Below the pieces are notes generated by a model that saw only the letters and a program-made list of their open reading frames with translations, was not told where the DNA came from and did not search any database. Both the position numbers and the translations under genes were made by a program. Below, one piece after another: positions 5,073-50,585 of a stretch of DNA of 53,081 nt. This DNA comes from an uncultured Thermotogae bacterium (lineage in GTDB: Bacteria > Bipolaricaulota > Bipolaricaulia > UBA7950 > UBA9294): NCBI GenBank assembly GCA_964635895.1, contig CAZWQN010000001.1, positions 1 to 53,081 on the forward strand, written 5' to 3'. The stretch's first letter is position 1, and each line of letters begins with the position of its first letter.

Positions 5073-5227
5073 GTCCGTCCCCTCCCTGAACGACGTCGTC
5101 CCCCTTCGGAGTGGTTGCCCTGTCCGCGCGACGTCGCCGGTCCTACCCTGGCCGTACCGGGTGGCGAGAGCGTCTCTGCCTTGCAGAGATGCTTGACCCC
5201 ACGCATCGCACAGCCGAAGGGGGAACG

Positions 5228-6037: not shown

Positions 6038-6039
6038 CT

Positions 6040-6705: not shown

Positions 6706-7658
6706 TCCGACGACTCTGCGTGATCGCCCTCGTCCTCGCCCCGCTCTTCCTGTCCGGCTGCGTTCTGAACACGATCCTCGACGACGTGGTGAACTCCCTC
6801 CCTCGGTCGGTCATCGACGCCGCGCCCACCCAAGGCGCCGCGCCGCTCACCGTCACGCTCGACGCCCACTTCTCGCATGACGACGACGGATCCATCGTCG
6901 GGTACCGGTGGGACCTCGGCGACCCTGCCGCGGCCACCGGAGCCCAGCTTGGCTCGACGTGCACGCACACCTACCAGTACCCGGGGACGTACTTGGTCAA
7001 GCTGTCGGTCGTCGACAACGAGGGAGCGACGGACTCCCAGCAGATCGCGATCGTCGCGACGAACGCACCCCCCGTCGCGCAGGCGACGGCGAGCAACTCG
7101 GCCCCCTACCCGGGAGACCCCGTGACGTTCGACGCGTCCGACTCCTACGATGCGACGGGGACGATCGTGAGCTATGCGTGGACCTTCGGCGACGGCGGGA
7201 CCGGCGAGGGCGTGACGGCGGCCCACACGTACTCCAAGGAAGGAAGCTATACCGTGAGGCTGACTGTCACCGACAACGAGGCTGCATCGTCGGACACGAC
7301 GCTCGTGGTGGACGTCCGGGTGGGGTCGAGCAACTGCGGCGACGGTGATTGCGGCGACTCGTACACCCCGCTCGCCGTGATCACGGGCTTGCGCAACGGC
7401 TGCTCCAACTACCATACCGTCGGCAGTCCCGCCACGTTCGACGGCCTCTCCTCCCGATCGGAAGGCGGAAGCATCGTCCGCTATGAGTGGGACTTCGGCG
7501 ACGGCTCCACGGGCAGCGGCAGCACCGTGAGCCACACGTACGCCACCAGCGGCACGTTCGTCGTGAGGCTCACCATCACCGACGAGGCGGGAGCAGTGGG
7601 AACGGGTTCCGGCTACGAGAAGGTGCGCTTCCCATCAGATGGAGGCATCTGCCCGTAG
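6702..7658 (+). CDS. PKD domain-containing lipoprotein (3 PKD domains)
   Basis: ATG 6702 overlaps the upstream stop (ATGA). Lipobox FLSGC. Three PKD units with WDLGD/WTFGDG/WDFGDG cores. Cys-rich linker NCGDGDCGD. Confidence 0.88.
   Translation: MIRRLCVIALVLAPLFLSGCVLNTILDDVVNSLPRSVIDAAPTQGAAPLTVTLDAHFSHDDDGSIVGYRWDLGDPAAATGAQLGSTCTHTYQYPGTYLVKLSVVDNEGATDSQQIAIVATNAPPVAQATASNSAPYPGDPVTFDASDSYDATGTIVSYAWTFGDGGTGEGVTAAHTYSKEGSYTVRLTVTDNEAASSDTTLVVDVRVGSSNCGDGDCGDSYTPLAVITGLRNGCSNYHTVGSPATFDGLSSRSEGGSIVRYEWDFGDGSTGSGSTVSHTYATSGTFVVRLTITDEAGAVGTGSGYEKVRFPSDGGICP

Positions 7659-8411: not shown

Positions 8412-8415
<4 letters not shown>
7720..8415 (-). CDS. Secreted hypothetical protein with an internally duplicated ~100-aa domain
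   Basis: The GTG start overlaps the uvrA stop (GTGA). Signal peptide [14 protein letters not shown]. Two similar halves (..VVSNVG...CLVYDTDG.. and ..GLVNPH...LVLYDAEGG..). Confidence 0.7.
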
Positions 8416-11248
<2,833 letters not shown>

Positions 11249-11252
<4 letters not shown>

Positions 11253-13246
11253 AGACCCTTCCTGACGTTCCGCAGCTCATCGCGCAGGGTCGCGGCCAGC
11301 TCGAATTCGAGCCGCTCGGCCGCCCGGAGCATCTGAGCCTCCAGGTCCCGCGCGTACGCGAGAAGCTCGTCGCGCTTCGTGGCCTGCGGTCGCTCGCGCA
11401 CCGCGGCCGGAGTCTCCGGGCGCACGGCGTGGAGCGCCTGCAGGATGTCGGTGACCTCGCGCTCGATGCTCCTCGGGGTGATCCCGTGCTTCTCGTTGTA
11501 GGCGACCTGGATGCGGCGCCGGCGGTTCGTCTCGTCGACGGCGTGGCGGATCGAATCGGTCATCGTGTCGGCATAGAGGAGCACCCGGCCGCGGACGTTG
11601 CGCGCCGCCCGCCCGATCGTCTGCACGAGCGACGTCCCCGAGCGCAGGAACCCCTCCTTGTCGGCGTCGAGCACCGCGACGAGCGCTACTTCCGGAAGGT
11701 CGAGCCCCTCGCGCAAGAGGTTGATTCCCACCAGGACGTCGAACTTCCCGAGGCGCAGGTCGCGGAGGATGTCAATGCGGTCGAGCGTCTCGATCTCCGA
11801 GTGCAGGTAGCGCGCCCGCACTCCCGCGTCGACGAGGTACTCGGTCAGATCCTCGGCCATCCGCTTGGTCAGCGTCGTGACGAGCGCGCGGTCCCCGCGC
11901 TCGACGGTGGTGCGGATCTGGCCGAGCAAGTGGTCGATCTGCCCCTTCACAGGGAGAACGCTCACCTCTGGATCGATGAGCCCCGTCGGGCGGATGACCT
12001 GCTCGACCACCCGCTGGCTCTTCCGCTCCTCGTACAGGCCGGGGGTCGCCGACGTAAAGATCACCTGGTTCACCCGCTCCTCGAACTCCGAGAAGGTGAG
12101 AGGCCGGTTGTCGAGCGCCGACGGAAGTCGGAACCCGTAATCGACGAGCGTCGTCTTCCGCGATCGATCTCCGTGGTACATCCCGCGCACCTGGGGCACT
12201 GTCTGGTGCGACTCGTCGACCACGAGGAGGAAGTCGCTCGGGAAGTAGTCGATGAGCACGGACGGAGGCTGGCCGGCGCGGCGCCCGTCGAGGTGGCGGG
12301 AGTAGTTCTCAATGCCGTTGCAGTACCCCATCTGCTGCATCATCTCGAGGTCGTAGCGGGTGCGCTGCTCGAGACGCTGCGCCTCGAGGAGGCGGTTCTC
12401 GTTGCGCAGCACGGCGAGACGCTCCTCCAGCTCCTCCTCCACCGTGGACGTCGCCCGCTGCATCTGCTCGTCGGGCGTGATGAAGTGCGACGCCGGGAAG
12501 ATCGTGATCGCCGCGACGTCCTCGATCGCATGTCCGGTGACCGGGTCGAGGAGGGCGATCCGCTCGATCTCGTCGCCGAAGAACTCGAGGCGCACGACCC
12601 GTTCCTCGTACGCGGGGATGATTTCCACCGTGTCGCCCCGGGCGCGGAACGTCCCTCGCTCGAAGCCGATCTCGTTCCGGCTGTACTGCAGGCCGACCAT
12701 CCGCCGCATGACGTCGTCGCGATCCCACGACGAACCGCGCTCGAGGGTGACCGACATGTCGTAGTAGCTCGCCGGCGACCCAAGGCCGTAAATGCACGAG
12801 ACGGATGCGACGATGATCACATCGCGCCGCTCGAACAGCGCCGCGGTCGCCGCGTGGCGGAGTCGATCGATCTCGTCGTTGATCGAGGAGTCCTTCTCGA
12901 TGTAGGTGTCCGTCTGCGGGATGTACGCTTCCGGCTGGTAGTAGTCGTAGTAGGAGACGAAGTAGTGAACTGCGTTGTCGGGAAACAGCTCGCGGAACTC
13001 GTTCGCCAGCTGCGCGGTGAGGGTCTTGTTGTGCGCGATCACCAGGGTCGGCCGCTGCACCTCCTGGATGACGTGAGCGATCGTGAACGTCTTTCCGGTC
13101 CCGGTCGCCCCCCACAACGTCTGGAACTGCAATCCCGAGCGAACCCCGTCCACCAGCCGCTCGATGGCCGCCGGCTGGTCGCCGCAGGGCTCGAGCCTGT
13201 TCGAGATTCGGAAACCCGCCGCTTCGCCGATCCGTGAAAGTCTCAT
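11249..13246 (-). CDS. uvrB: Excinuclease ABC subunit UvrB
   Basis: GDQPAAI..L, helicase motif [15 protein letters not shown] box, C-terminal UVR motif. ATGA overlap with uvrA. Confidence 0.98.
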
Positions 13247-25257: not shown

Positions 25258-26118
25258 CTAGTACATCGTCTGCATGTCGAGAAGCCCCCGCGCCCGTGCC
25301 CGTCGCTCGGCGATCCGAAACACGACGACGGCGAGTCCCGCGAGGACGATGGTCGAGCCGACGATGACGGCGAGGAGCACCCCGTTGGAGAGCCCCTCGA
25401 ACGCCGGCGTCCTCGTGCCCAAGAGCGCCCTCCGGAACGCCTCGATCCAGTAGGTGATCGGGATGGCGCGCCCGACGATCCCGAGCCACGACGGCAGCGT
25501 GTCGAGCGGAAACACGACCCCGCACAGGAGGTAGAGGCCGCCCGCCACCGCCTCGCCGACCCCGTAGTTGTGCCGCGCCGTGACCAGGGTCACTCCGCCG
25601 AGCAGGATCCCGAAGAACGCGAGCATCACGCATCCGCACACCAGGGCGCCCGCGGCCAGCGGCCCGTCGAGGACACCCAGCCCGATCGGCACCCTGAGCG
25701 CGAACGCGCCGAGCAGCAGGGTGATCACGACGGCGACCGTCGCCACCGCCGCCTTCGCGACCCCGCGACCGACGAGGTAGGCGAACACGCTCACCGGCGC
25801 GGTGTACACGTACTTCAGCATCCCGTAGTGCTCCCGATCGTCGATGATCGTCCAACTGATCCCGGCCAGTACCGCGGGAACGTAGATGAACACCGCGTTG
25901 CCGACGAACACCCCCGGGAAGAGGGGGCTCGCGAGTCCCCCCTTCGCGATCACGGCGTACATGAAGACCAGGATCAACGCGCCCGCCAGGGGCTTCACGA
26001 GCGAGTAGATCGCGAACACGAACGGGTCGGCCCAATTCGATTCGATCTGCCATCCCAACCACGTGGCAACGCGGAAGCTCCGCACCGCTTCCTCGAGACC
26101 TCGACCGGACCGCATCAT
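25258..26118 (-). CDS. ABC-2 type transporter permease
   Basis: Six TM helices. ATG 26118 overlaps the upstream stop (ATGA). Confidence 0.82.
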   Translation of the reverse strand: MMRSGRGLEEAVRSFRVATWLGWQIESNWADPFVFAIYSLVKPLAGALILVFMYAVIAKGGLASPLFPGVFVGNAVFIYVPAVLAGISWTIIDDREHYGMLKYVYTAPVSVFAYLVGRGVAKAAVATVAVVITLLLGAFALRVPIGLGVLDGPLAAGALVCGCVMLAFFGILLGGVTLVTARHNYGVGEAVAGGLYLLCGVVFPLDTLPSWLGIVGRAIPITYWIEAFRRALLGTRTPAFEGLSNGVLLAVIVGSTIVLAGLAVVVFRIAERRARARGLLDMQTMY

Positions 26119-26942
26119 TGCCCCCTGACCGTGAGCCGCCCCTCGCGCCGCGCCAGCTTCTCGAAGTACGAGAGCGCGCGATGCGCGAGGAACAGAAAGA
26201 GGACCGAGGCTCCCACGAGGATCGCGAGTTCCACCTCGGCGGACAAGAACCGCAGGCTCGTCATCATCGATGGGAACAGGAGCTGTCGCATCGCGTCGAG
26301 GCCGAGCGTGATCGGCAAGACCGACGCCGCCGCGGCCACCAGCTGCCCCAGCGCCCGCACCGGGAAGTAGAACCCCGACACGAGGGACACTGGCTCCTGC
26401 AACAGGTTCGAGAAGTGCCATGCCTCGCGCCCGAAGAGAAGGAAGAGCGAGCTCAGCATCATGCCAAGCCCGTACAGAGCCACAAGGGTCGTCAGGAACA
26501 CCCCGAGGAGCACGGGGATGTTCGTGACGGTCATCGACACGCGGAACAGGAGTGCGCCGATCGTGATGATCGCCGCCGCGCGGAGCGTCGTCTGGAACAT
26601 GCCGCCGAGCGCCATGCCGAGGAGGATCGCCATCCTCGACGTCGGCGCCACCACGTACAGCTCGAGGTTCCCCGTCTCCTTCTCCCAGTACAGCTGGCTC
26701 GCCATGCTCCAGAGCACGTTCAACCAGTAGGCCGACATCGCCCCGCCGAGGACCACGAACCCGAGGAATTCAGGTGGCGCCTGGATCGCGCGGTAGATGA
26801 ACACGTAGGCGGTCACCTGGAGCAAAGGGAGGAAGATCTCGAAGAATACCCAGCTCTTCTCGCGCTGTGCTCCGATGACCCGCGGGTACGCCCGGCCGCG
26901 AACGGTTCGCCAGAACGTCGTCCACTTCGAGCGCCCGGTCAC
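26115..26942 (-). CDS. ABC-2 type transporter permease
   Basis: Six TM helices. The GTG start overlaps the ATPase stop (GTGA). Confidence 0.82.
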   Translation of the reverse strand: MTGRSKWTTFWRTVRGRAYPRVIGAQREKSWVFFEIFLPLLQVTAYVFIYRAIQAPPEFLGFVVLGGAMSAYWLNVLWSMASQLYWEKETGNLELYVVAPTSRMAILLGMALGGMFQTTLRAAAIITIGALLFRVSMTVTNIPVLLGVFLTTLVALYGLGMMLSSLFLLFGREAWHFSNLLQEPVSLVSGFYFPVRALGQLVAAAASVLPITLGLDAMRQLLFPSMMTSLRFLSAEVELAILVGASVLFLFLAHRALSYFEKLARREGRLTVRGQ

Positions 26943-27952
26943 GCCGCACCTCCTCCGTTCGGCTCCTCGAATCCGTGACCGACCACCTCGAGGAACACGT
27001 CCTCCAGGGTCGGCTCTCGCTTCTCCAGCGACACGAGCGCCCCGCCGCCTGCCTCCACCGCGGCGAGGAGGCTCGTCAGCGCGGCGTCGCTCGCCAGGAT
27101 GACGTCGGCCTCCAGGTGATCGTCGTGCGCCCTCTGAGCGAATCGGCTCACCCCGGGAAGCGGCTCCACCGCCGCGCGGACGTCATCGACGCCACCGATT
27201 CGGAGTCGGACGATCGCTTCGCGCTTCAGGCCGCGCTTCAGGTTGGCCGGCGCGTCGCACGCCAGGATCCGCCCCCGATCGATGATCGCCACGCGGGCGC
27301 ACAGCTCGTCCGCCTCGTGCATCGCGTGGGTCGTCAGGAGAATCGTCCGGTCGGGGTGCTCCAGGAGCCAGTTCGAGACGAAGCCCCGCAGGGTGCGCGC
27401 CGTCTGCACATCCAGACCGAGCGTCGGTTCGTCGAGGAACAAGATCTCGGGCTCGGTCAGGAAGCCGCGTACGAAGTTCATCTTCTGCCTCATCCCGGTC
27501 GACAGGTGGTAGATCTTCGTCCGAGAGCGATCGCTCAACCCGACAACCGCCAGCAGCTCCCGGATTCGCGCGCGAGCCGTCCGGGTCTCCATCCCGTAGA
27601 ATTGGGAGAACATCCACAGGTTCTCCTCCACCGTGAGGAGTCCGTAGCCCGACGTCTCGCCACCCGACACCATGCCGATGTGCTCGCGCACCCCCTTGGG
27701 GTCGGCGGCGACGTCGACGCCGGCCACCCACGCCCGGCCCGACGTGGGGGTCAGCAGGGTGGCCAGGATCTTGATCGTCGTGGTCTTTCCGGCGCCGTTC
27801 GGGCCGAGCACCCCGAACAGCTCGCCGCGAGGGACCGCGAAGCTGATCCCGTCGAGCGCGACAACCTCCCGCTTCTGCTTCTTCGCTTCCCGCTTCCGCG
27901 CCCGAAACACCCGGCGCAGGTCCTCCGTACGAATCGCAATCTCACTGGACAT
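26939..27952 (-). CDS. ABC transporter ATP-binding protein (DrrA-like)
   Basis: Walker A GPNGAGKTTT, signature LSTGMRQK, Walker B LFLDEPT. ATG 27952 with AAGGAG RBS. Confidence 0.92.
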   Translation of the reverse strand: MSSEIAIRTEDLRRVFRARKREAKKQKREVVALDGISFAVPRGELFGVLGPNGAGKTTTIKILATLLTPTSGRAWVAGVDVAADPKGVREHIGMVSGGETSGYGLLTVEENLWMFSQFYGMETRTARARIRELLAVVGLSDRSRTKIYHLSTGMRQKMNFVRGFLTEPEILFLDEPTLGLDVQTARTLRGFVSNWLLEHPDRTILLTTHAMHEADELCARVAIIDRGRILACDAPANLKRGLKREAIVRLRIGGVDDVRAAVEPLPGVSRFAQRAHDDHLEADVILASDAALTSLLAAVEAGGGALVSLEKREPTLEDVFLEVVGHGFEEPNGGGAA

Positions 27953-27988
27953 ATCCAAGACTCCTTGCGTTCTATCATGAAGGCGCCC

Positions 27989-28009
27989 GCCTGTCGCGAA
28001 GCGACAGGC
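27989..28009 (-). terminator. Hairpin downstream of the DOMON-like gene, a weak terminator candidate
   Basis: Perfect 9-bp stem GCCTGTCGC-GAA-GCGACAGGC with no clear U-tract. Confidence 0.35.
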
Positions 28010-28128
28010 ACGCGCTCTCTCGTCGTCGGGGTTCCCGGCCGCGTCACGCGACGCCGGAACGTCCACGCGTCATCCGGTGAGTGGACGAACCGATCTCCTT
28101 GGATTCGACTCGGCCCTCTGCGCCGCGG

Positions 28129-28839
28129 CTACGGCGCCGGGTCGAGCGTGATCTCCCCGGTCCCGCGCCGGGTATGGCGCATGGAGAAGTCGTCGGAGAG
28201 GTCGTTGTAGGCGACGAGGATGGGATACGTTCCCCCGGGCACCAGCCTCTTGTCCGTCGAGTCGCCCGAGTCGAGCGGAATCACGAACTCGACCACCGTC
28301 TGGTCCGCCCACTGGTGCCCGGCGGAGGACATCACGTGGTCCGCCCCCCCGAGCTTCGTATCCGCGTCGTGGCCGGTGGTGGAGTTGCCGTAGTCATCGC
28401 GGACCGTCACGATCCCCTCGCGGACCGATCCCAAGATGAAGTTCGCTCCAAGCATCCCGTCCACAGGGTCCAGGCCGATGGCCACGTACCCCGTTCCGGG
28501 GCTGACGAGGCCGACGCACAGGACTCGGCTGTCGTTCATCCAGTGCACCTCGACGTCAGAGACCTTTGTCGAGTGCGCATACTCGCCCTCCGAGATGACG
28601 CCCTCCACAGACGACAGGGCCGTTCGTGGCGGCGCCGCCGGCTTGGGCTCGGGACTCGGAGCCTGCGTCACCGGCGCCGCCGTGCTCCCCTCGACGGCCG
28701 CAGGCACCTGGGGTGCCTCCGCCGCCGGCGTCGTCTCCGTCACCGCCGACTCTCCCGCCGGCCACTGCGTCAACACGAGCCAAGTCGCGAACCCCGCTGC
28801 AAGAGCCACGCCAAGAACAACCAAGATCCACTTGCTCAC
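28129..28839 (-). CDS. Membrane-anchored DOMON-like (EB_dh/haem-binding-like) domain protein, paralog 1
   Basis: GTG 28839 with GGAGGGGG RBS (alternative ATG 28869). N-terminal TM helix, Pro/Ala/Thr linker, C-terminal domain GEYAHST...HW.ND...GYVAIG.DP...M.GANF. About half of the residues are identical to CDS 31555-32394 by eye. Confidence 0.75.
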   Translation of the reverse strand: MSKWILVVLGVALAAGFATWLVLTQWPAGESAVTETTPAAEAPQVPAAVEGSTAAPVTQAPSPEPKPAAPPRTALSSVEGVISEGEYAHSTKVSDVEVHWMNDSRVLCVGLVSPGTGYVAIGLDPVDGMLGANFILGSVREGIVTVRDDYGNSTTGHDADTKLGGADHVMSSAGHQWADQTVVEFVIPLDSGDSTDKRLVPGGTYPILVAYNDLSDDFSMRHTRRGTGEITLDPAP

Positions 28840-29212
28840 GAGAACCCCCTCCTGCCCCCGCGAGGGCATGCGACGTGTCCATGCACTCTACTGCGGAAGG
28901 TAACGCAAGCCAAGCGCCCGTCAGGCGGGTTTCGACGCCCTTCCTGCCGAACGCGCGACTCCCGCGAAAGTGACGCACATCACAAATGAGGACGCTCGGG
29001 ATTCTTCGCGCTTGTCATCCTTCGGCTTCGTTCCGTTTCGCCCCGACGCCGTCGAGCCCGTCGTCGCGCCGGCAGAAGTGAGCCATTCGCCCCGGGATGA
29101 GCGGATGCCGCGACGGCGTCCTTGCGGGCGCCGATCCCGTTAACCGCCCGCCGAACGAGCCGCCGGCAAGGCTTCACGCGATGACTCCGGAAGAGGGGGC
29201 CCGCGTTTGGCC

Positions 29213-30349
29213 CTACGGAGCCGCGGCGAAGCGGAGCTCGCCTGGGCAGAGATCGAGAAGCTGCGCGGACTGGGTCTTCCATCCCGCCGACCACACCAGC
29301 TCCTGGACCCGTGGCGCGACGTAGGCGTAGCACTCCTCGGCCGAGGTCATCCCATCCCCATCTCCTTGGGCGTCGGCGAGACCGTCGAGCGCCTCAAGCA
29401 GGGCGTAGGTGAACGCGCCGTGTCCAAGCGCGTTAAGTTCCCACGAGTACTCGTCGTACCGACACGCCGCGACCGCGACGATCGACTTGACGAGCTGATC
29501 CAGGTCGCGCGTCCGCGGCTCCGCCAGCCGCGCGAGGTCGTCGAGGAAGTCGCCCGGCTCCGCGTCGGGGTGCGCGCCCAACGAGTTCAGTTGGCCGCCG
29601 GAGTAACAGGCGTCGATCATCACCACGATGCGACTCATCGGAACTTGCGACAGAAGTGCCTGCAACGTGTCGTCGCGGAAGTACGTCTGATCGTAGAGGC
29701 ACAGGCACTCGTCCTGCAGGTCGGCCTCCTCGAAGGCGTCGTCATCCCACGCCTTCGTCCCGTGGCCGGAGAAGAAGAAGAAGAGCGTGTCCCAAGCGCT
29801 CGCATCGTCCAACGCATCCACCGCGGCCGCGAGATTCGCCGCCGTCGCGTTCCCGTTGACGAGCAGCGTCACGTTGGCGGGATTCCACCCGCCTGTCTGC
29901 CGCAACCACGCCGCGACCGACTGAGCGTCGTCGTCCGTGAACGAGAGCGCGGGGAGCTGCGGATCCGCGTACGCTGCGATCCCCACGACGATCGCGTAGC
30001 TCGCTCCCTGATGGGCAACGACCTGCCCGGTCGTCTCGCTCTTCTCGCCGCTGTTGTCCGTCACCGCCAACGTCACAGAGAACGTTCCGGCCGTGGTGTA
30101 CGTGTGGGTCGGCGTCGGCCCCCACGCCGTCTCCCCGTCGCCGAAGCGCCACGAGTAGGAGGAGACGTAGCCGTCCGGATCGTACGAACCCGTCGCATCG
30201 AAGCTGACGTAGAGCGGCGCCCCGCCCTCCGTTGGCGCCGCGGTGAATCGCGCCACGGGAAGCTGATTCTCGAACAGGAAGCACCCTCCCAGAAAGAGGG
30301 CGCACCCAAGGCATAACCCCAAGACAGCGATCCGTCTACCGCTTCTCAT
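29213..30349 (-). CDS. Lipoprotein with an N-terminal PKD domain and a C-terminal caspase-like (peptidase C14) domain
   Basis: RBS GAGGTGA. Lipobox LGGC. PKD unit (VSFDATGSYDPDG..SYSWRFGDG...HTYTTAGTFSVTLAVTDNSG). Caspase His motif FFFFSGHG and Cys motif VMIDACYSGG. Confidence 0.88.
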   Translation of the reverse strand: MRSGRRIAVLGLCLGCALFLGGCFLFENQLPVARFTAAPTEGGAPLYVSFDATGSYDPDGYVSSYSWRFGDGETAWGPTPTHTYTTAGTFSVTLAVTDNSGEKSETTGQVVAHQGASYAIVVGIAAYADPQLPALSFTDDDAQSVAAWLRQTGGWNPANVTLLVNGNATAANLAAAVDALDDASAWDTLFFFFSGHGTKAWDDDAFEEADLQDECLCLYDQTYFRDDTLQALLSQVPMSRIVVMIDACYSGGQLNSLGAHPDAEPGDFLDDLARLAEPRTRDLDQLVKSIVAVAACRYDEYSWELNALGHGAFTYALLEALDGLADAQGDGDGMTSAEECYAYVAPRVQELVWSAGWKTQSAQLLDLCPGELRFAAAP

Positions 30350-30758
30350 CGCTTCACCTCTCGCGTTCTTCTACACCATGGGCCGCCGCCCTCCTCGCCC
30401 GAGGATCGTATCCCCAGGGGATCCACGGGCCAACCCAGCCCATCACCTCTTCGTCCCGTCCCGTCGCGGGGACGGCACGTTCCAGCATGACGCCGGGCCG
30501 GCATCGGCAGAAGCAGCAGCCACAGCCTTGTTCAGCCGCCTTCCTCGCGCCTGGACTCGGGGCTACCACTCTGCCCCACGGGAGGGTAAACTGGTATGGT
30601 TCACCGCGGAGACCGCGCCCTTAGGGAGGCTTGGCGTGGTGCCGCCAAATGAGGGCCAGCTAAGCGGGCGCTCTACCTACCCGCGATCCTGGTGGGCGTT
30701 TCGTGAAGGTGTATTTCGAAGTGGGAGCGCAAGGAGCTCCGACGAAAAGGGAGTCGAT

Positions 30759-31412
30759 ATGCTGCGGCGTTTGGGCGTGCTACTGTGCGTAGTTGGGCTA
30801 CTGGCATTCGCTGTCGGTTGCGGGGGACCGTCCGAGAAGAGCTTCACGGAACTGTCCGGTCAAGTGGCGGCGCTGGCGAAGCAGATCACCGACCTTCAGG
30901 CGTCGACCGCGAGCCTCCAGACGAAGGTTGATCAAGCGACGCAGGCGACGACGGCCGTGAGGACGGAAGTGACGAATCAGGGATCGTCGGTGAAGCAGCT
31001 GACGACGAAGTTGTCGGCTCTCGAGACGGCGCTCCAGAATCACATGGATCCGCCGCTTATTGTCGAGGTCACGACCCTCACGTCGCCGGTCAAGGTCGGG
31101 GACAAGGTTGAGCTTGTCGCGAAGACGCGCGCCGGCACCCGCTGCGCGATCGCGATCACCTACCCCGCCGAGACCAAGATCAAGGCCCCGACACTCCGGG
31201 ATGCGGTCGCGGACAAGAACGGCAAGGTCGACTGGTCTTGGAAGGTCGACAAGAAACTGCCCGCCGGAACGTACACGGTGAAGATCACCGCCACCCTCGG
31301 CGGGAAGACGGCGACCCAGAACGCCACGTTCACGGTGACCGTTCCGCCCGCCGCGGTCAAGAAGACGACGGAAACAAAGACGGACACGAAGACGTCGAGC
31401 GGAAAGGGCTAG
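30759..31412 (+). CDS. Lipoprotein with a coiled-coil segment and an Ig-like beta domain (hypothetical)
   Basis: ATG 30759 with AAAAGGGAG RBS. Lipobox AVGC. Heptad-like Q/T/A-rich segment and Lys/Thr-rich tail. Confidence 0.75.
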   Translation: MLRRLGVLLCVVGLLAFAVGCGGPSEKSFTELSGQVAALAKQITDLQASTASLQTKVDQATQATTAVRTEVTNQGSSVKQLTTKLSALETALQNHMDPPLIVEVTTLTSPVKVGDKVELVAKTRAGTRCAIAITYPAETKIKAPTLRDAVADKNGKVDWSWKVDKKLPAGTYTVKITATLGGKTATQNATFTVTVPPAAVKKTTETKTDTKTSSGKG

Positions 31413-31441
31413 CGGGTCACGTTCATCTGGTAAACGGACCT

Positions 31442-31469
31442 CCGGGGACGCTGCCTCCAGCGTCCCCGG
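31442..31469 (+). terminator. Rho-independent terminator candidate
   Basis: Perfect 12-bp stem CCGGGGACGCTG / CAGCGTCCCCGG with loop CCTC, followed by the pyrimidine-rich ATCTCCTCTTCTTCC. Confidence 0.65.
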
Positions 31470-31554
31470 ATCTCCTCTTCTTCCCTCCCTACCCACTTCC
31501 CCGGCGGGGGCCCTCCTCTCCGGCCCCGGCAGGGCACGCCTCGGGCAGGTCGCG

Positions 31555-32394
31555 CTATCCCGGATCTAAGCGCATCTTCCCAGCGCCGCGGCGGCTGTGG
31601 TACGTGTCGAAGTCGTCGCTCGTCTCGTGGAAAGCGATGACGATGTCGTAGGTATTTCCCGGCAGGAGCGGCTTGTCCATCCGGTCCCCGGAGTTGAGCG
31701 CGATCATGAACTCCACGTACGTCTGTCCCTCCATCTCGCGACCTGCGGCGGCCAGGATGTCGTCGGTGCCTCCGAGACTCACGTCCGCCGCGTGAGTCAG
31801 GGCTCCGTTCCCGTAGTCGTCACGCGTCCAAAGCTGGCCGTCCCGCACCGCCGCCAACACGAAGTTCGCTCCCTGCATCCGATCGTCCGGATCGAACCCG
31901 ACCGCGACGTACCCAGCCCCGGGGCTGAGCACCCCCACGCGCAGGAACGAGGCGTCGTTCCACCAGTGGATCTCGAACCCGCCCGCCTCGGTGCTGTGGG
32001 CGTACTCGCCCGCATAGATCACTCCGTCGACCGCAATCACCGGCGGCCCACCCGGGTTGGGTAGGGGCTGCAACTCCGTCGGCTCCACGACTTGGACGAA
32101 CGACGAGGCGGGCGCGGGCTGCGGTGAAGCAGCCTGCGGCTGGGTCGTGGTCGCCGCTGCCGCCGGGCTGGCCGACGTCGAGGACACGGGTTTCGTCGTG
32201 GTCGCGGCGGTCGCGACCTGCGCTGACGTCGTCGCGTAAGGAGGTGATATCGTCTGCGAATGTGCTGCATGCGTCGCCGGCACTTCGGCAACGCCGTCGC
32301 CCCCGGACGACGCGAGCGCTACCACCAGCGCGATGATCCCCGCTGCAACAAGAATCCCAATCAGGATAAGGGTTTCCTTATTGATGACCACCAT
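31555..32394 (-). CDS. Membrane-anchored DOMON-like domain protein, paralog 2
   Basis: ATG with GAAGGAGG RBS. N-terminal TM helix, Thr/Ala/Pro/Ser linker. The C-terminal domain is collinear with CDS 28129-28839. Confidence 0.8.
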   Translation of the reverse strand: MVVINKETLILIGILVAAGIIALVVALASSGGDGVAEVPATHAAHSQTISPPYATTSAQVATAATTTKPVSSTSASPAAAATTTQPQAASPQPAPASSFVQVVEPTELQPLPNPGGPPVIAVDGVIYAGEYAHSTEAGGFEIHWWNDASFLRVGVLSPGAGYVAVGFDPDDRMQGANFVLAAVRDGQLWTRDDYGNGALTHAADVSLGGTDDILAAAGREMEGQTYVEFMIALNSGDRMDKPLLPGNTYDIVIAFHETSDDFDTYHSRRGAGKMRLDPG

Positions 32395-32552
32395 GGGGCC
32401 GCCTCCTTCTCAAGCCGTCCACGAGATCCACTCTAGGTCATGGGAGCCGCTCGAGGCAACACGCCCGGAAGAGAGGGCAACCGGAGCCGCCCCGGACTCA
32501 CCGGAATGGACGCGTCGGAGTGGAAGGTCTACGCTGGCTCCGGTGGTCTACT

Positions 32553-33641
32553 ATGAGGCATCTCGGTGCGGTCCTCGCTGCGGCTGCCCTCCTGGTCCTA
32601 TGTTGTGCGGTCGATTCGTCGACGGCTGAGCCCGCACAGCTTCCGACCGGCTCCTCGATCCGAGAGGCGGTCGCCGGCGCCGCGCCGTTCACCGTCATTG
32701 AACTCGGTGCGGGGATCTTCCACGAGTCGCTCGTCATCGATCGGTCCGTGACTCTGCGCGGAGCCGCCGAGGGGACGACGATCGAGGGTACGGCGTCCGG
32801 GCCGGCAGTCCGGATCTCCGGGACAGACCTCCGCGTTCGCCTTGAGAACCTGACGATCGCAGGCGGACGCGGGTGGAACGGGCACGGGATCCAGATTGAG
32901 GGGTCTCCGTCCGTCCATCTCGACGCGGTGACATCGACGCGGAACGCGTGGTGCGGTCTGTGGGTCACCGACAAGAGCGTCGTCACGCTCAGTCGTTGCC
33001 GCCTGGTGGAGAACGGCACGCACGGGCTGTACACATGGGACTTCGCCCGCATCGAGGCGCAGGAGTGCGAGATCTCCAGGAACTGCACGCACGCCGTCCT
33101 CGCGTTCCACCTCTCCGAGCTCTGGCTCCGCGACTGCGTAGTCTCCGCAAACCTGTCCGGCGTCTGCGTCTGGGACGGCGTGCGCTTCCACGCGTCCAGC
33201 ACGGCTGTCACCGACAACGCGCTGTGCGGTCTCGTCGCACAGAACGGATCCTGGCTCGACCTGTCCGGGTGCGAGGTGGCCCAGAACGGCAAGAACGGGC
33301 TGTGGTTCACGGACTCCGGTCGTGGATCCCTGTCGGGCTGCGCCATCCGTGCCAACGGCGACGACGGCGTGTTCATCGAGCGCGACGGGATTGCCGACTT
33401 CGTCCAGTGCGTCGTCAACGACAACGCCGGATTCGGCATCCGAGCCTCTGTGCCGTCGTGCACCGGCGGGTTCGTGTCCGGGGAGCCGTACAAGGGCTGG
33501 ATCGAGGGGACGGCTAACGTCGTTCCCGGCTCGAGCGAGCCTAGCGGGAATCGCCTTGGGGGTCTCTGCCCGAGCTATCCAGGTTCGATTTGGCCACCGG
33601 GGTTCCTCTCGACGCCCCAGGGAGGGGGCGACGGTCCGTAG
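32553..33641 (+). CDS. Secreted right-handed parallel beta-helix repeat protein
   Basis: Signal peptide MRHLGAVLAAAALLVLCCA. Repeated ~22-aa units (N.L.I.GG...G..I, ...C.L..NG..G, ...C.I..N...). Alternative GTG start at 32520. Confidence 0.78.
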   Translation: MRHLGAVLAAAALLVLCCAVDSSTAEPAQLPTGSSIREAVAGAAPFTVIELGAGIFHESLVIDRSVTLRGAAEGTTIEGTASGPAVRISGTDLRVRLENLTIAGGRGWNGHGIQIEGSPSVHLDAVTSTRNAWCGLWVTDKSVVTLSRCRLVENGTHGLYTWDFARIEAQECEISRNCTHAVLAFHLSELWLRDCVVSANLSGVCVWDGVRFHASSTAVTDNALCGLVAQNGSWLDLSGCEVAQNGKNGLWFTDSGRGSLSGCAIRANGDDGVFIERDGIADFVQCVVNDNAGFGIRASVPSCTGGFVSGEPYKGWIEGTANVVPGSSEPSGNRLGGLCPSYPGSIWPPGFLSTPQGGGDGP

Positions 33642-35466: not shown

Positions 35467-37428
35467 TCAGACGGGCGAGGGGTTGTTGGTCCTGTGGTCG
35501 TACCGCTTCCAGCCGTTGCGGCCGCGGTTCTTGACGTTGTACATCGCCGCGTCGGCCCGCTGCAGGAGTCGCGTTCCGTCGTCCCCGTCGTCGGGGTAGA
35601 GGGCGATGCCGATGCTGACCGACAGGCCGCGCGCGAGCTCCGCCGCGTGGAACGCGTCGCGAAGCGTCCCGAGGATCTTCCCCGCGGCAAGCTCCGCGTC
35701 GCGCGGCGAGTCGATCCCCGGCAGGAGAGCGACGAACTCGTCTCCGCCCAGGCGCGCCACCGTGTCGCTCGCCCGCAGCGCCTCGCGGAGACGGGCCGCC
35801 ACCTCTCGCAACACGCGATCGCCGGCCTCGTGTCCGTGGATGTCGTTGACTTGCTTGAAGCGATCGAGGTCAAGGTAGAACACGGCCAGGCGCTCCAGGT
35901 TTCTCTTCGCGCGAGCGATCTCGAGGGTCAGCACGTCGTTGAGCGCGCTCCGCGTCAAGAGTCCCGTCAGCGGGTCGTGGCTCGCGAGGAACGTCAGCTC
36001 CTCCTGCTGACGCAGAAGCTCGGTGACGTCACGGATGATCCCCTGGTACACCCGCTCCTCCGTCCCGGGCAGCTTCTCGGTGATGGTCGTCAGGAGGCAG
36101 CGCACGAGCGCGCCGTTCTTCTTGCGGAGAGTCACCGGGTAGCTCGTGACGAACCCCTTCGCCGCGATGGCCTCGCGAAAGGCGTCTCGATCCTCAGAGC
36201 GCGCGTACAGCTCCCCCGCCGTCTTCGCCATGATCTCGTCCCTCGAGTACCCGAACAGCTCAACGAGCGCCGGGTTCACGTCCACGAAGTGCCCGTCCTC
36301 CGCCGTGATGTAGATCGGATCGCGCGACGAGTCAAACAGGTTGTGATATCGCCGCTCACTCTGCGCGAGCGCCGTGTTGGACTCGTCAATCGCCGCAAGC
36401 ATGCCGTTGATGTTCGTGACCAGCCCCCCGAGCTCGTCCTTCCCCTCCTCGCCCACGCGCGACGACGGATCCTTGTCGCGAGCGATTTGCGCCACCCTGT
36501 GTGTAATCTTCGCCATTCGTCTCAGCACGCGTCGGTCGGTGAAGAGCAGGAACCCACCGGCCAAGAGGGCAAACGTGCCAAGAGCGGCGTTCGTCAGAGC
36601 CGCCAGCGTCCTCATGCCCGCCATGTACGTGATGCGCGGCATGTTGATCGCGAGAACCGCGATCGGCGTCCCGTGCAGGTCACGCCAGAGGGAGTACGCC
36701 GCCACGACTTCCTCACTCACCGGCACGACGGCGGTGGGCATCTGCGTGGCATCGTCGCCCGTCAGAGCCGCCACAACGCCCGGGTCGCTTCTTGGATCGT
36801 CCATCATGCGGAAGACGAGCGGAAGGATGACCTTGGCGGACAACCGCAGAACCTCCGCCGCAGTGAGAGTTCGCACAAGCACGAGAGTGCCCCGCGCCGG
36901 AGGCTTGTGGGTGCTGGCCAGGATCGGGTGGATGGCGACAAGTGCCAGGGATCCGTCGATCAAGAGTAATCCCGTGCGGCCGGCGGTGTCGGCGGGCAAA
37001 GGCGTCGTCGGAACAATCGTGCGCAAGGCTCCCATCATGTCTGCGGACGTCGCCGTCGACACCCCCTCTTCCAGGTCGAACGCCCTCGCATCCACGAGGC
37101 GCCCCGAGCCGTCGTAGAGCGCCATCAGGTTCAGCCGCAGGTTGGCGAACGTTTCGGCCGTGAGGTTGTCCTCGATGAACCTGGGGTTCTTCCCCTGAAC
37201 GAACTCAAAGGTGTCATCCCACGCCGCCCAGTCGTGAGACGCCGTCTCCATACCGGCGAGCTCCGTGCTGACCGCGTTGCGCGCCGTGTCCAGGTTGCGG
37301 CGCACGTCCATCCGTTCCATCTCGAGGAACTGGTTCCGCAAGTACAGGGTCCCCACGCTGATGAAGAGCGCCACGGCGATCGCCGCGACAACCGCAAGCC
37401 CCACAAGCACCTGGGTGCGTAGCCGCAT
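35467..37428 (-). CDS. Sensor diguanylate cyclase (CHASE4-like periplasmic domain, HAMP, PAS, GGDEF)
   Basis: N-terminal TM helix, periplasmic segment with the W..WDDT..F motif, second TM helix, PAS (SERRYHNLFDSSRDPIY), GGDEF active site RLGGDEFVALL. Confidence 0.9.
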   Translation of the reverse strand: MRLRTQVLVGLAVVAAIAVALFISVGTLYLRNQFLEMERMDVRRNLDTARNAVSTELAGMETASHDWAAWDDTFEFVQGKNPRFIEDNLTAETFANLRLNLMALYDGSGRLVDARAFDLEEGVSTATSADMMGALRTIVPTTPLPADTAGRTGLLLIDGSLALVAIHPILASTHKPPARGTLVLVRTLTAAEVLRLSAKVILPLVFRMMDDPRSDPGVVAALTGDDATQMPTAVVPVSEEVVAAYSLWRDLHGTPIAVLAINMPRITYMAGMRTLAALTNAALGTFALLAGGFLLFTDRRVLRRMAKITHRVAQIARDKDPSSRVGEEGKDELGGLVTNINGMLAAIDESNTALAQSERRYHNLFDSSRDPIYITAEDGHFVDVNPALVELFGYSRDEIMAKTAGELYARSEDRDAFREAIAAKGFVTSYPVTLRKKNGALVRCLLTTITEKLPGTEERVYQGIIRDVTELLRQQEELTFLASHDPLTGLLTRSALNDVLTLEIARAKRNLERLAVFYLDLDRFKQVNDIHGHEAGDRVLREVAARLREALRASDTVARLGGDEFVALLPGIDSPRDAELAAGKILGTLRDAFHAAELARGLSVSIGIALYPDDGDDGTRLLQRADAAMYNVKNRGRNGWKRYDHRTNNPSPV

Positions 37429-47528: not shown

Positions 47529-48692
47529 TCAGTCGAGCGCGTGCAGGCAGTCGGCGTACCCGGCCACCTCGAGATCCTCCTCAGCGATGAAGCGCAGCGC
47601 GGCGGAGTTGACGCAGTACCGCTTGCCGGTCGGCGCAGGGCCGTCATCGAACACGTGCCCCAGGTGGGAGTCGGCGTAGCGGCTGCGAACCTCGACGGCG
47701 GGGAAGAAGGCGGTTCGATCCTCGCGCGTCACCACGCTGCCCGGCTCGATCGGGCGGGTGAAGCTCGGCCAGCCGGTCCCGGAGTCGAACTTGTCGCGTG
47801 AGTCGAACAGCGGCTCGCCAGAGACAACGTCGACGTAGATCCCCGCCTCGTGGTGGTCCCAGTACTCGTTCTGGAACGGCGGCTCGGTCCCGTTCTCCTG
47901 CGTCACCGAGTACTGAAGCGGCGTCAGCGTCTGCCGCAGCTCCTCGGGCGACGGCTTCTGGAAGCCGATCCACGGCCGCTCGGGCGGAAAGAGCGACAGG
48001 CCCTCGAACCCCGCCCACGCCCGCTCGACGAACGCCGCTCGCCCCGTGCCCGCGCTGTACGCGCGGAAGTGCACTGCATTCTTCAGGTAGTAGTCCTGGT
48101 GGTACTCCTCCGCGGGGTAGAACGCGCCGGCGGGCAGGATCTGCGTCGCGAGCGGCTGGGCGAACACCCCGGCCGCTTCGAGCGCCCGCTTCGACGTCTC
48201 CGCCTGCTGCCGCTGTCCTTCGTCCCCGTAGAAGATGGCGGTGCGATACTGGCTGCCGCGGTCGTAGAACTGGCCGCCCGCGTCGGTGGGGTCGATGTGC
48301 CGCCAGAAGACCTCGAGGAGCTCCTTGTAGGAGATCTTCCCGGCGTCGTACCGCACGCGAATCGCCTCGAAGTGGCCGGTCGTACCCGTGCAGACCGCCG
48401 CGTAGGACGGGTTCTCAACCTCGCCGCCCGTGTACCCGGACACCACGTCGAGGACCCCCGGCAGCGGCTCGAAGATCGACTCCATGCACCAGAAGCATCC
48501 GCCCGCGAAGATCGCCTCTTCGATCGGGCCTCGGCCTTCGCTCGTCTTGTACATCTCGTCCTCCTGGGCGGCCGCGTCGCCCATCAGGCCGGCCTGCCAT
48601 CCGGTCAATGATGCCACCAACGCCGCACCTGCAACCGCGGTAACGGCGGCGCGAATCCGTGACCCACGCCTCGTGCCGTTCATCGTGTTCAT
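47529..48692 (-). CDS. msrAB: Bifunctional peptide methionine sulfoxide reductase MsrA/MsrB with an N-terminal export signal
   Basis: MsrA motif GGCFWCMES. MsrB motifs GTGWPSF and [10 protein letters not shown]-terminal [24 protein letters not shown] 48692 with AAAGGGGG RBS. Confidence 0.9.
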
Positions 48693-48846
48693 CGCCCCCT
48701 TTCGCCCGCCACAGAGCCTCACACCCATGGCCGGCCCGATTCGTGACCCCTTCTCACGTCACGGGAGGGAATACTGCGCCGGCGTGAACTGGAAGTGAAG
48801 AACCTTTGGGCTTTCAGCGTCATCCGGCCTGGGGCGCCGCCGCCTC

Positions 48847-49229: not shown

Positions 49230-50585
49230 TCAGGGGATGATACGGACGGCCTTCGGGGCTCTGTCAGCCCTGGAAACGTCATAGACCGTGTCTATGTCGG
49301 CGGCTGTGAGCCCCCAGGGGTCGACGCCGAGGGGGACGTAGCCGCCTTCGACGGCGGTTTCGGCGAAGGCGTAGGTCTTGCCGCCGTACTGCCAGAAGCT
49401 GCGGTCGGGGTGCGCGGCGACAAACGACGGCTGGACGGGAACCCAGGCGATCATGTGGTCGGCGTAGCCGTCGCCGCTGGTGTCGACGGCGACCATCAGC
49501 GCACCGTGGCCGAGGGTCCGGACGAGGCTGGTGTAGAGGATGGCGGTGTCTTCGCAGTCGCCGATCTTGTCGACGAGCATCTCGACGGGGTAGCGGGGGT
49601 ACTCGTACCACAGGGGGTCGTAGACGTACTGAATGCAGTTCTGCACGAAGAACAGGGCGTTCTCAAGCTGTTCGTGGTAGTCGACGGAGTTGCCGACGAT
49701 CTCGGCGGTGACTTCTTCGAGGTACTCGTCGTCGAGCGGATCGAGGACGTATTCGTCGTAGTCTCTGTTCGCCCACGGGGTCCGTAGTTGTGACTTGTAG
49801 TAGCGGTACAGGTCGAGGGAGATGTCAAGATCGCAGGTCTCTTCCTCTCCGCCGTATTCCCACTCGTAGTGTCGGGCCACGGTCCCTGAGGAGTTGATCA
49901 CGTTCGCGATCTCGACACCGGTCGTCGCGGTCTGCTCGCCGCCGTCGTTGTCCTCGATCGTGAGAGAGACGGCGTACGTGCCCACGGCGGAGTATTGGTG
50001 GTACGCGTTGGCGCCCGTGCCCGCGGCTCCGTCCCCGAAGCTCCACTGGTATGACACGATCTCACCGTCGGGGTCGTACGACCCGTTTGCGCTGAATCGG
50101 ACGGTCTGTCGTGGATACGCCGGGGACGGAAAAACGGAGAGCGCGGCGACGGGAAGCTCGTTCGATCCACGAACGCGGATCTCTACGGACGCGGCGGTTC
50201 GCCCTCCGCGCTTGTCGGTCACGGTGAGGGTGGCTTCGTAGGTTCCGCCGACTGCGTAGGTGTGGTCGATCCGCGATCCCGTGCCCTCATCTCCGTCGTC
50301 GAAGTCCCACTCGTAGCGGCGAATCACGCCGTCGGGGTCGTAGGAGCCGGTGCCGTCAAACTCGACGGTGAGCGGCGCAAGTCCCTGGGTCGGCTCGGCC
50401 TCGATCTCCGCCACCGGGAGGGTGTTCGGGAAGAGGAAGCATCCGGCTGCCGCAGATGCTGTCGCAGCAAGCAAAGCTGCCGCACACACAGCTCTCAAGG
50501 TGACGCAAGCTCTGCTAACCGCACCCCCGTTCGACTCACGCTCGCGTGCCGACCTCCAAGACCTACAGCCCATAGCAGAGAGCAT
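49230..50585 (-). CDS. Lipoprotein with two PKD domains and a C-terminal transglutaminase-like cysteine protease domain
   Basis: Lipobox AAAGC. PKD units (VEFDGTGSYDPDG..YEWDFDDGD and VRFSANGSYDPDG..YQWSFGDG). Core motifs GDCEDTAILYTSLVRTLG (Cys) and ADHMIAWV (His). The start is uncertain (ATG 50585 or 50573). Confidence 0.82.
   Translation of the reverse strand: MLSAMGCRSWRSARERESNGGAVSRACVTLRAVCAAALLAATASAAAGCFLFPNTLPVAEIEAEPTQGLAPLTVEFDGTGSYDPDGVIRRYEWDFDDGDEGTGSRIDHTYAVGGTYEATLTVTDKRGGRTAASVEIRVRGSNELPVAALSVFPSPAYPRQTVRFSANGSYDPDGEIVSYQWSFGDGAAGTGANAYHQYSAVGTYAVSLTIEDNDGGEQTATTGVEIANVINSSGTVARHYEWEYGGEEETCDLDISLDLYRYYKSQLRTPWANRDYDEYVLDPLDDEYLEEVTAEIVGNSVDYHEQLENALFFVQNCIQYVYDPLWYEYPRYPVEMLVDKIGDCEDTAILYTSLVRTLGHGALMVAVDTSGDGYADHMIAWVPVQPSFVAAHPDRSFWQYGGKTYAFAETAVEGGYVPLGVDPWGLTAADIDTVYDVSRADRAPKAVRIIP

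Follow-up and report, generated by a model that had tools for sequence, protein, structure and literature searches.

The gene and its predicted product

We analysed a stretch of DNA of 53,081 nt (hereafter the window; G+C content 67%), which corresponds to positions 1 to 53,081 of contig CAZWQN010000001.1 in the assembly GCA_964635895.1 of an uncultured Thermotogae bacterium, assigned by GTDB to Bipolaricaulota. At 29213..30349 on the minus strand, the list of open reading frames (ORFs) gives an uninterrupted frame of 378 codons followed by a stop. The encoded protein of 378 residues, here termed the C14 protein, is composed of a lipobox signal peptide, one PKD domain and a complete Peptidase_C14 domain, in this order. 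An earlier note on this DNA had read the same succession of one PKD domain and a caspase domain from the sequence alone, and both the PKD_4 and the Peptidase_C14 matches indeed lie above the Pfam gathering cut-offs. The features of the gene are listed below.

29213..30349, minus strand: whole C14 gene (ORF list, Pfam, and about 58 full-length orthologues that are 41-93% identical)
30355..30360, minus strand: Shine-Dalgarno-like GAGGTG, 5 nt 5' of the ATG (direct sequence reading)
30284..30349, minus strand: predicted signal peptide, residues 1-22, with n-region MRSGRR and h-region IAVLGLCLGCALFLGG (rule test; the model has a helix at residues 3-23)
30281..30292, minus strand: lipobox L20-G21-G22-C23, Cys23 being the predicted lipidation site and first mature residue (PROSITE-type rule, orthologue conservation)
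30032..30268, minus strand: PKD domain, residues 28-106, beginning 5 residues past the predicted lipidated Cys (Pfam PKD_4, E 2e-21)
29216..30001, minus strand: caspase/hemoglobinase-fold domain, residues 117-378, with p20-like and p10-like parts in one chain (Pfam, AlphaFold2, Foldseek)
29927..29929, minus strand: Asp141 (TDDD), predicted acidic residue of the S1 pocket; aligned with Asp of GC(I/V)ND in metacaspases; invariant
29762..29764, minus strand: predicted catalytic His196 (SGHG); aligns with SGHG of AtMC4, GSU0716 and the Candida glabrata metacaspase; invariant in 27 orthologues
29690..29746, minus strand: acidic cluster, residues 202-220 (DDDAFEEADLQDECLCLYD), a candidate Ca2+ site with invariant E208, D210, D213, E214 and D220
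29612..29614, minus strand: Asp246 (D-A-C), second predicted acidic residue of the S1 pocket; aligned with Asp of DSC in metacaspases; invariant
29606..29608, minus strand: predicted catalytic Cys248 (DACYSGG); aligns with the Cys of AtMC4 DSCHSGG; invariant in 27 orthologues
29510..29602, minus strand: loop of low model confidence that follows the predicted catalytic Cys, residues 250-280; predicted local distance difference test (pLDDT) 31-41; equivalent to the p20/p10 linker
29330..29374, minus strand: EF-hand-like loop DAQGDGDGMTSAEEC, residues 326-340, with invariant D326, G329, G333, S336, E338 and E339

The N-terminus reads MRSGRRIAVLGLCLGCALFLGG followed by C, with the signal peptide predicted to be cut between the two, that is, before Cys23. 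Under a PROSITE-type lipoprotein rule, which asks for a Cys at position 15-35, one or more basic residues among the first seven and an uncharged h-region, Cys23 is an acceptable site, given three Arg in the first seven residues (R2, R5 and R6) and an h-region free of charge. This Cys is kept in all 52 orthologues with a complete N-terminus, where it directly precedes the sequence F/M-L-x-x-N-x-x-P-V-A that starts the PKD domain. The strict rule is passed by 45 of these 52 N-termini, and the other seven have Pro, Trp or Gln near the box. It is mainly the conservation of the Cys across 41-93% identity that speaks against a plain signal anchor and in favour of a lipoprotein. In addition, at least eight ORFs of the window have canonical lipoboxes, suggesting that the lipoprotein pathway is in routine use in this organism. 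Genes for Lgt and LspA, for which no search of the genome was made, do not lie in the window. Taken together, these features support the C14 protein as an exported protein of the lipoprotein type, predicted to be lipid-anchored outside the cytoplasmic membrane, in agreement with the LGGC lipobox proposed in the earlier note.

The PKD domain is matched by two profiles, PF18911 and PF00801, with 76 and 55 bits, respectively. Comparison using Foldseek revealed that this part of the protein superposes on the PKD structures of the clostridial collagenases ColG and ColH with a target template-modelling (TM) score of 0.85-0.94, at a sequence identity of 36-42%. Residues N28, D57, D59 and D98 are invariant in the orthologues and align with Asn/Asp residues of the collagenase PKD domains, including that of ColH; they may thus match a collagenase Ca2+ site. 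In ColG and ColH, the PKD domain joins a metalloprotease to collagen-binding domains, whereas in the present protein a single PKD domain joins the putative lipid anchor to a cysteine peptidase.

Peptidase_C14 (PF00656) covers residues 118-324 with 71.4 bits, against a gathering cut-off of 21.4. The motifs LFFFFSGHGT (His196) and IVVMIDACYSGG (Cys248), which the earlier note had taken for a His-Cys dyad, are both present and align with the dyad of metacaspases. Furthermore, in sequence alignments Cys248 falls exactly over the substituted Ala of the AtMC4 C139A (6w8r) and AtMC9 C147A (8a53) chains, both of them crystallised metacaspases of Arabidopsis. Because the SGHG and DACYSGG motifs align with metacaspases and Cys248 lies over the Ala of these Cys-to-Ala constructs, the assignment of the His196/Cys248 dyad is secure at the sequence level. 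We also obtained an AlphaFold2 model of the C14 protein, built on 27 orthologues, and the conservation columns were taken from a set of the same size. The model has a mean pLDDT of 82.9 and a predicted TM score of 0.80, with residues 250-280 as the sole poorly defined stretch. A Foldseek search against the Protein Data Bank (PDB) gave GSU0716 (3bij) as the best match, followed by AtMC9, AtMC4, the yeast and Candida metacaspases and MALT1 (E 1e-13 to 1e-8); the top 50 matches consist of GSU0716, metacaspases and MALT1, at a probability of 1.00. The model thus bears out the caspase-like fold that the earlier note had suggested checking, and the predicted dyad together with the modelled fold supports a catalytically intact domain.

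GSU0716 from Geobacter sulfurreducens, a caspase-like protein solved by structural genomics (PDB 3BIJ), is matched with E 1e-13 and a target TM score of 0.62-0.65. Its SGHG and D-x-C-H-SG motifs align with those of the C14 protein, it has the same D-E-x-D-G-x-DE acidic stretch, and it likewise combines p20 and p10-like parts in a single chain; however, it has no PKD domain and is only 21% identical. The best sequence matches among solved structures are eukaryotic metacaspases (AtMC4 6W8S, AtMC9 8A53, Yca1 4F6O and TbMCA2 4AFR; E 4e-9 to 4e-3), which share with the C14 protein the dyad, both S1 Asp residues and the acidic cluster after the His, at 16-19% identity. They differ in being cytosolic and Ca2+-dependent and in having prodomains or long linkers, and one of their four Ca2+ ligand positions is not conserved in the C14 protein.

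These alignments also bear on substrate specificity. Invariant Asp141 and Asp246 sit at the positions of the metacaspase S1 pocket, a role that we assign to them by analogy, and cleavage is therefore predicted to occur after Arg or Lys, not after Asp. In the alignment to AtMC4 and GSU0716, the acidic cluster takes the place of the motif D..GDE.DG.DE..(x)D that metacaspases have behind their catalytic His, and it may bind Ca2+. The loop 250-280 is a candidate autoprocessing region; in most orthologues, a basic residue precedes the invariant pair D282-L283.

Orthologues and neighbouring genes

A search of 5.8 billion proteins yielded the full-length orthologues counted above, which are about 376 residues long and have the same PKD plus C14 architecture; all those carrying a source name belong to Candidatus Bipolaricaulota (Acetothermia/OP1), which answers the survey of relatives that the earlier note had called for. 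When one genome per GTDB species was scanned, full-length matches came only from metagenome-assembled genomes (MAGs) of Bipolaricaulota type, two of which are labelled Thermotogota. Unlike the relatives in other phyla, this compact form of lipobox, PKD and C14 is accordingly a lineage-specific architecture, and it is uncharacterised. The two MAGs in question, those of loci L012 and L014, bear the label Thermotogota/Thermotogae together with a locus of Bipolaricaulota type (49-77% identity, same synteny); the label may be wrong for these bins, or it may stem from the close kinship of Thermotogota and Bipolaricaulota.

Members of Bipolaricaulota are described as atypical diderms without lipopolysaccharide (LPS) genes, and the first isolate has a toga-like outer sheath and an S-layer (PMC6092417; bioRxiv 10.1101/2025.11.21.689855). 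Given this envelope, the mature C14 protein would be tethered in the periplasm or the toga space. The strictly anaerobic lifestyle suits an extracytoplasmic cysteine peptidase.

The genes next to the C14 gene in the window are the following.

26115..28066, minus strand: genes of an ATP-binding cassette transporter of the ABC-2 type, downstream of the DOMON gene, comprising a DrrA-like ATPase (26939-28066) and a permease (26115-26942) (Pfam; synteny)
28129..28869, minus strand: downstream gene encoding an N-terminal transmembrane helix, a Pro/Ala-rich linker and a DOMON domain (Pfam DOMON, E 3e-10; synteny)
30759..31412, plus strand: divergent gene of an Lpp/alanine-zipper-like lipoprotein with lipobox AFAVGC, a coiled coil and a C-terminal Ig-like domain
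31555..32394, minus strand: second DOMON paralogue (transmembrane helix, linker, DOMON), in the syntenic block (Pfam DOMON, E 1e-11)

Comparison with the loci of relatives (numbered with the prefix L) revealed that the C14 gene is followed by a DOMON gene on the same strand in all nine loci with downstream sequence, namely the window, L001, L003, L005, L008, L009, L011, L012 and L014. The Lpp-like lipoprotein gene lies upstream in eight of ten loci, the window included, at a distance of 0.4-2.1 kb from the C14 gene in L001, L003, L005, L008, L009, L013 and L014; the lipoproteins are 38-78% identical between loci. The two DOMON paralogues of the window, which flank the caspase locus, are 39% identical, have long Pro/Ala/Thr-rich linkers and are both conserved in relatives. 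The C14 gene thus belongs to a vertically inherited block of envelope genes, in which its tightest neighbour link is to the DOMON gene and not to the coiled-coil lipoprotein. For the latter, the lipobox and the coiled-coil region described in the earlier note are confirmed, and a C-terminal Ig-like part can be added. As to its suggested function as partner or substrate of the peptidase, all that speaks for it is the synteny of fairly close relatives, and in some genomes other genes are inserted between the two.

Several insertions vary from locus to locus. A P2-type cation ATPase of 937 residues is encoded between the DOMON and ABC transporter genes in L001, L003, L005 and L014 and is absent from the locus in the window, L008, L009, L011 and L012; to connect it with Ca2+ handling for a metacaspase-type enzyme would be pure speculation. 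In L005, the interval that holds the ATPase gene additionally encodes an H+-pyrophosphatase and a small PKD lipoprotein. In L001 (6269-7177), L005 (5131-6042) and L014 (1323-2228), a gene of the papain family (Peptidase_C1) separates the C14 gene from that of the Lpp-like lipoprotein; the papain-family product has no obvious signal peptide, and its gene is absent from the locus of the window. In L005, the second DOMON paralogue sits in this upstream interval too. The spacing between the C14 and DOMON genes also differs, with a gap of 343 nt in the window (28870-29212), about 330-360 nt in L008 and L009 and only 70-100 nt in L001, L003 and L005. In the gap of the window, the promoter/terminator scan and Rfam gave no terminator, promoter or Rfam match. 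On the far side of the block, the window encodes a right-handed beta-helix or NosD-like protein with a hydrophobic N-terminus (32520-33641, plus strand), which adjoins the envelope genes, and a CHASE4-HAMP-PAS-GGDEF diguanylate cyclase (35467-37428, minus strand); CHASE4 and GGDEF genes also occur near the caspase block of L008.

The scan of 28000-31600 for promoters and terminators gave matches no more frequent than chance, and Rfam at gathering thresholds found nothing near the C14 gene, only a distant tRNA cluster. Six tRNA genes are packed tightly at 368-941 on the plus strand (Leu-TAG, Gly-GCC, Leu-TAA, two Met-CAT and Ala-CGC). An ORF of 369 residues runs antisense to the caspase gene (29207-30316, plus strand). 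We rejected it as a by-product of the high G+C content, since domains and homologues exist only for the minus-strand frame. Long antisense ORFs are numerous across the window and represent the same artefact rather than genes.

The pairing of a lipobox with PKD domains recurs elsewhere in this DNA. The earlier note had assigned the architecture of the C14 protein also to a PKD-transglutaminase protein at 49230-50585 on the minus strand. The protein is indeed a lipobox-PKD lipoprotein, in an ORF that extends to 50870; it has the lipobox AAGC followed by FLFPN and the same FLFxN-LPVA junction as the caspase protein. The likeness is incomplete, however, in that it contains two PKD domains rather than one (44% identical to that of the caspase protein), and its C-terminal match to the papain-fold Transglut_core, with a GDCED motif, lies exactly at the threshold of 23.0 bits. 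Three consecutive ORFs with canonical lipoboxes are located at 5090-7658 on the plus strand, the last of which (6456-7658) has three PKD domains. Since the window thus encodes three PKD lipoproteins and further PKD lipoproteins adjoin the C14 gene in L005 and L007, the combination of lipobox and PKD appears to be a recurrent N-terminal presentation module in this lineage. Among the remaining genes of the window, uvrA (946 residues) and uvrB (665 residues) are adjacent at 8412-13246 on the minus strand, and an MsrA-MsrB fusion (methionine sulfoxide reductase) at 47529-48728 on the minus strand has a signal-peptide-like N-terminal extension of about 55 residues that includes AAAQ and is possibly of the Tat type, which suggests repair of oxidised Met outside the cytoplasm.

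Predicted export among relatives of the C14 domain

The earlier note had presented an exported caspase as unusual, a view that a survey of the family does not sustain. A search of 1.84 billion representative proteins with only the caspase domain (residues 112-378) as query gave 28,623 matches at E <= 1e-3, from which we took the best 146 non-self representatives and scored the 130 that begin with Met. By a crude hydrophobicity rule, controlled with internal segments of the same proteins, 101 of these 130 closest relatives (78%), all full-length and from other phyla, have a signal-peptide-like hydrophobic N-terminus, compared with 2% of the random internal segments. In 49 of the 101, the first caspase strand (YAVIVGIADY) directly follows the signal peptide. 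Pfam analysis of 20 relatives found C14 in combination with PPC, CHU_C, Por_Secre_tail (type IX secretion), CARDB, VWA, LRR and BACON. PKD repeats accompany C14 in relatives P0140 and P0260, and proteins of about 300 residues with a lipobox and C14 only are represented by P0157, P0166, P0178 and P0190. A published survey had already reported transmembrane helices, many of them probably signal peptides, in 15% of 671 prokaryotic metacaspases, and many of the associated domains were extracellular (Asplund-Samuelsson et al. 2012, PMC3501461). The signal-peptide-like starts of the nearest relatives, their secretion and surface modules and the 2012 survey together indicate that export is the norm, not the exception, for this branch of the C14 family. 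The earlier interpretation as a whole is therefore upheld in its molecular reading, with its element of surprise removed.

The nearest relatives of the caspase domain outside Bipolaricaulota, whose taxonomy was taken from the GTDB genome scan, are uncharacterised, secreted multi-domain proteins of Bacteroidota, Nitrospirota, Ignavibacteriota, Rokubacteria, Planctomycetota and others, at 26-46% identity. In these five named phyla, the related domain is C-terminal in proteins of 600-1100 residues, nearly all of which have a signal-peptide-like start; in such multi-domain relatives C14 otherwise follows the signal peptide directly, with PPC, type IX secretion system (T9SS), LRR or VWA tails. Pfam detected no T9SS tail or PPC domain of the kind present in relatives in the 378-residue protein.

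Exported peptidases of the caspase fold are also familiar from other families. Gingipains (C25) and clostripain/PmC11 (C11) are exported His-Cys peptidases of anaerobes that cleave after Arg or Lys and often have Ig-like domains and surface attachment; gingipains rely on the T9SS and on anchoring by anionic LPS (A-LPS), not on a lipobox. The C14 protein gave no significant sequence match to the C25 or C11 families in the searches made. Its counterparts among characterised enzymes are rather the orthocaspases, prokaryotic C14 peptidases with a His-Cys dyad and an acidic pocket that directs cleavage to Arg/Lys (PMC6426788). The pocket Asp residues of orthocaspases such as MaOC1 of Microcystis aeruginosa (reviewed in PMC6426788 and PMC7935541) are invariant in the present protein too. 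The characterised orthocaspases, however, are cyanobacterial and are treated as intracellular, with MaOC1 cleaving an antitoxin, whereas the present protein has a lipobox and a PKD domain. A literature search for proteins that combine PKD with C14, for caspase domains in lipoproteins or in the periplasm and for caspases of Bipolaricaulota returned nothing specific. The C14 protein belongs to a class of exported bacterial C14 peptidases that is common but has been little studied.

Proposed role at the cell envelope

Overall, we consider it likely that the gene encodes an exported lipoprotein C14 peptidase of the metacaspase-like or 'orthocaspase' type, for which we favour a role in limited proteolysis close to the envelope. 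The molecular identity of the protein can be stated with considerable confidence, whereas any specific biological role can be offered only tentatively. In the model that we propose, the Sec signal peptide would be cut before Cys23 and Cys23 would be lipidated, as expected from the sequence rules. This would leave a mature acidic protein of about 38 kDa (about 355 residues), tethered to the membrane surface and facing the periplasm or the toga space. The PKD domain, probably stabilised by Ca2+, would act as a short rigid spacer, and the caspase-fold domain with its His196/Cys248 dyad would cut behind Arg or Lys and not behind Asp. Activating autoprocessing would probably take place in the disordered loop 250-280. 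Finally, the enzyme may carry out limited proteolysis or turnover of envelope proteins within a few nm of the membrane, the weakest step of the model, suggested by the genomic context. We favour envelope proteolysis over cell suicide or defence because of the tether near the membrane and the surrounding block of two DOMON genes, an Lpp-like lipoprotein gene and ABC-2 transporter genes.

Three observations weigh against this model. The most divergent loci, L006 and L007, have other upstream genes, and their contigs end within about 0.3-0.5 kb of the C14 gene. The synteny comes entirely from the genomes of one class, so that common descent, and not a functional coupling, may account for it. The fourth Ca2+ ligand position of metacaspases, 7 residues past the Cys, varies between N, D, R and G across the orthologues, which makes the Ca2+ dependence of the enzyme uncertain.

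Other explanations concern where the protein resides. It might be exported without being a lipoprotein, if its N-terminal helix stays uncleaved as a signal anchor or is a signal peptide of type I, which would yield a transmembrane-anchored or a soluble periplasmic enzyme. The few orthologues with Pro or Trp at position -2 that fail the strict PROSITE rule fit this idea, but in every complete orthologue, over the full range of identity, the Cys comes right after L-x-G/S at the end of the h-region, which is hard to explain unless it is modified. A second PKD protein of the window has the same GC-FLF-x-N junction, and several other ORFs there bear canonical lipoboxes, so that we regard this explanation as quite improbable. 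Still less credible, to the point of being nearly dismissed, is a cytoplasmic or defence/cell-death caspase of the type linked to NLR, CHAT, EACC1 or gasdermin proteins, in which the hydrophobic N-terminus would be incidental. The generic caspase model of PADLOC does match the C14 protein (E 5e-19), and the NCBIfam model of EACC1-associated caspases (NF047832) matches weakly, but its 77.7 bits are far under the cut-off of 140; with a generic match and a score below cut-off as its only hits, the defence reading was rejected. Nor did the PADLOC scan of the four neighbouring proteins find a meaningful defence partner: its hits were all weak (E about 1e-3 to 6e-3) and fell in coiled coils or regions of low complexity. 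Moreover, the genes around the C14 gene code for DOMON proteins, a lipoprotein and an ABC transporter, the C14 gene itself is conserved vertically and in synteny instead of occurring patchily, its orthologues retain the signal peptide and lipobox, and PKD is an extracytoplasmic module.

Alternatively, the enzyme could differ from our proposal in what it does outside the cytoplasm. It might chiefly be a transpeptidase or ligase that joins proteins to an envelope component, in the manner of legumain or GPI (glycosylphosphatidylinositol) transamidase, or even a non-catalytic binding module. Clan CD includes transpeptidases, Pfam gives a weak match to Peptidase_C13 (E 0.003), and the C14 gene is linked to genes of envelope-anchored proteins with long linkers. 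Yet the best matches in sequence and fold are hydrolytic metacaspases and GSU0716, there is no evidence for an acceptor substrate, and the intact, invariant dyad and S1 residues argue against a pseudo-enzyme, all of which renders this explanation very unlikely. Unlikely too, though it deserves more serious attention as the main rival, is a nutrient-scavenging protease, which would feed an amino-acid-fermenting cell by breaking down proteins or peptides from outside within the enlarged periplasm or toga space, and would not act on envelope proteins of the cell itself. The bipolaricaulotal organism Ran1 is predicted to depend on exogenous amino acids and to encode only one extracellular protease (PMC6092417), and bacterial metacaspases have been proposed to degrade extracellular proteins (PMC4933709). 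Modules typical of degradative secreted enzymes (PPC, T9SS tails, CARDB and BACON) occur in many relatives of the caspase domain, and the PKD domain is itself a typical feature of secreted hydrolases, collagenases among them. On the other hand, a lipid tether with a single-PKD spacer implies a short reach, metacaspase-type enzymes are usually selective endopeptidases, and the neighbours encode envelope proteins and an export-type ABC-2 transporter rather than peptide uptake. The single copy in the window and the synteny of the locus across relatives are also more in keeping with a housekeeping function than with an expandable degradative repertoire.

Within the preferred model of envelope-proximal proteolysis, a more specific version can be imagined, in which the lipobox-PKD-C14 protein and the DOMON protein encoded after it throughout form an envelope module specific to Bipolaricaulota, and the protease matures or regulates redox or anchor proteins of the toga-like sheath by cleavage after Arg or Lys. 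We offer this as a speculative idea with a small chance of being correct. If true, it would give a caspase homologue a dedicated housekeeping role in envelope biogenesis, and not in death or defence.

In summary, the literature on bacterial caspase homologues centres on cell death, stress and defence, whereas the present locus and survey point to a large, widespread C14 subfamily predicted to work outside the cytoplasm, of which our limited searches found no characterised member. The finding opens no new category and answers no long-standing question. The version in Bipolaricaulota, a strictly anaerobic lineage from which a first isolate has now been reported, is nonetheless well suited to biochemistry, being compact (about 355 residues when mature), conserved and predicted to be catalytically intact. 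Its characterisation would provide the first reference point for exported orthocaspases.

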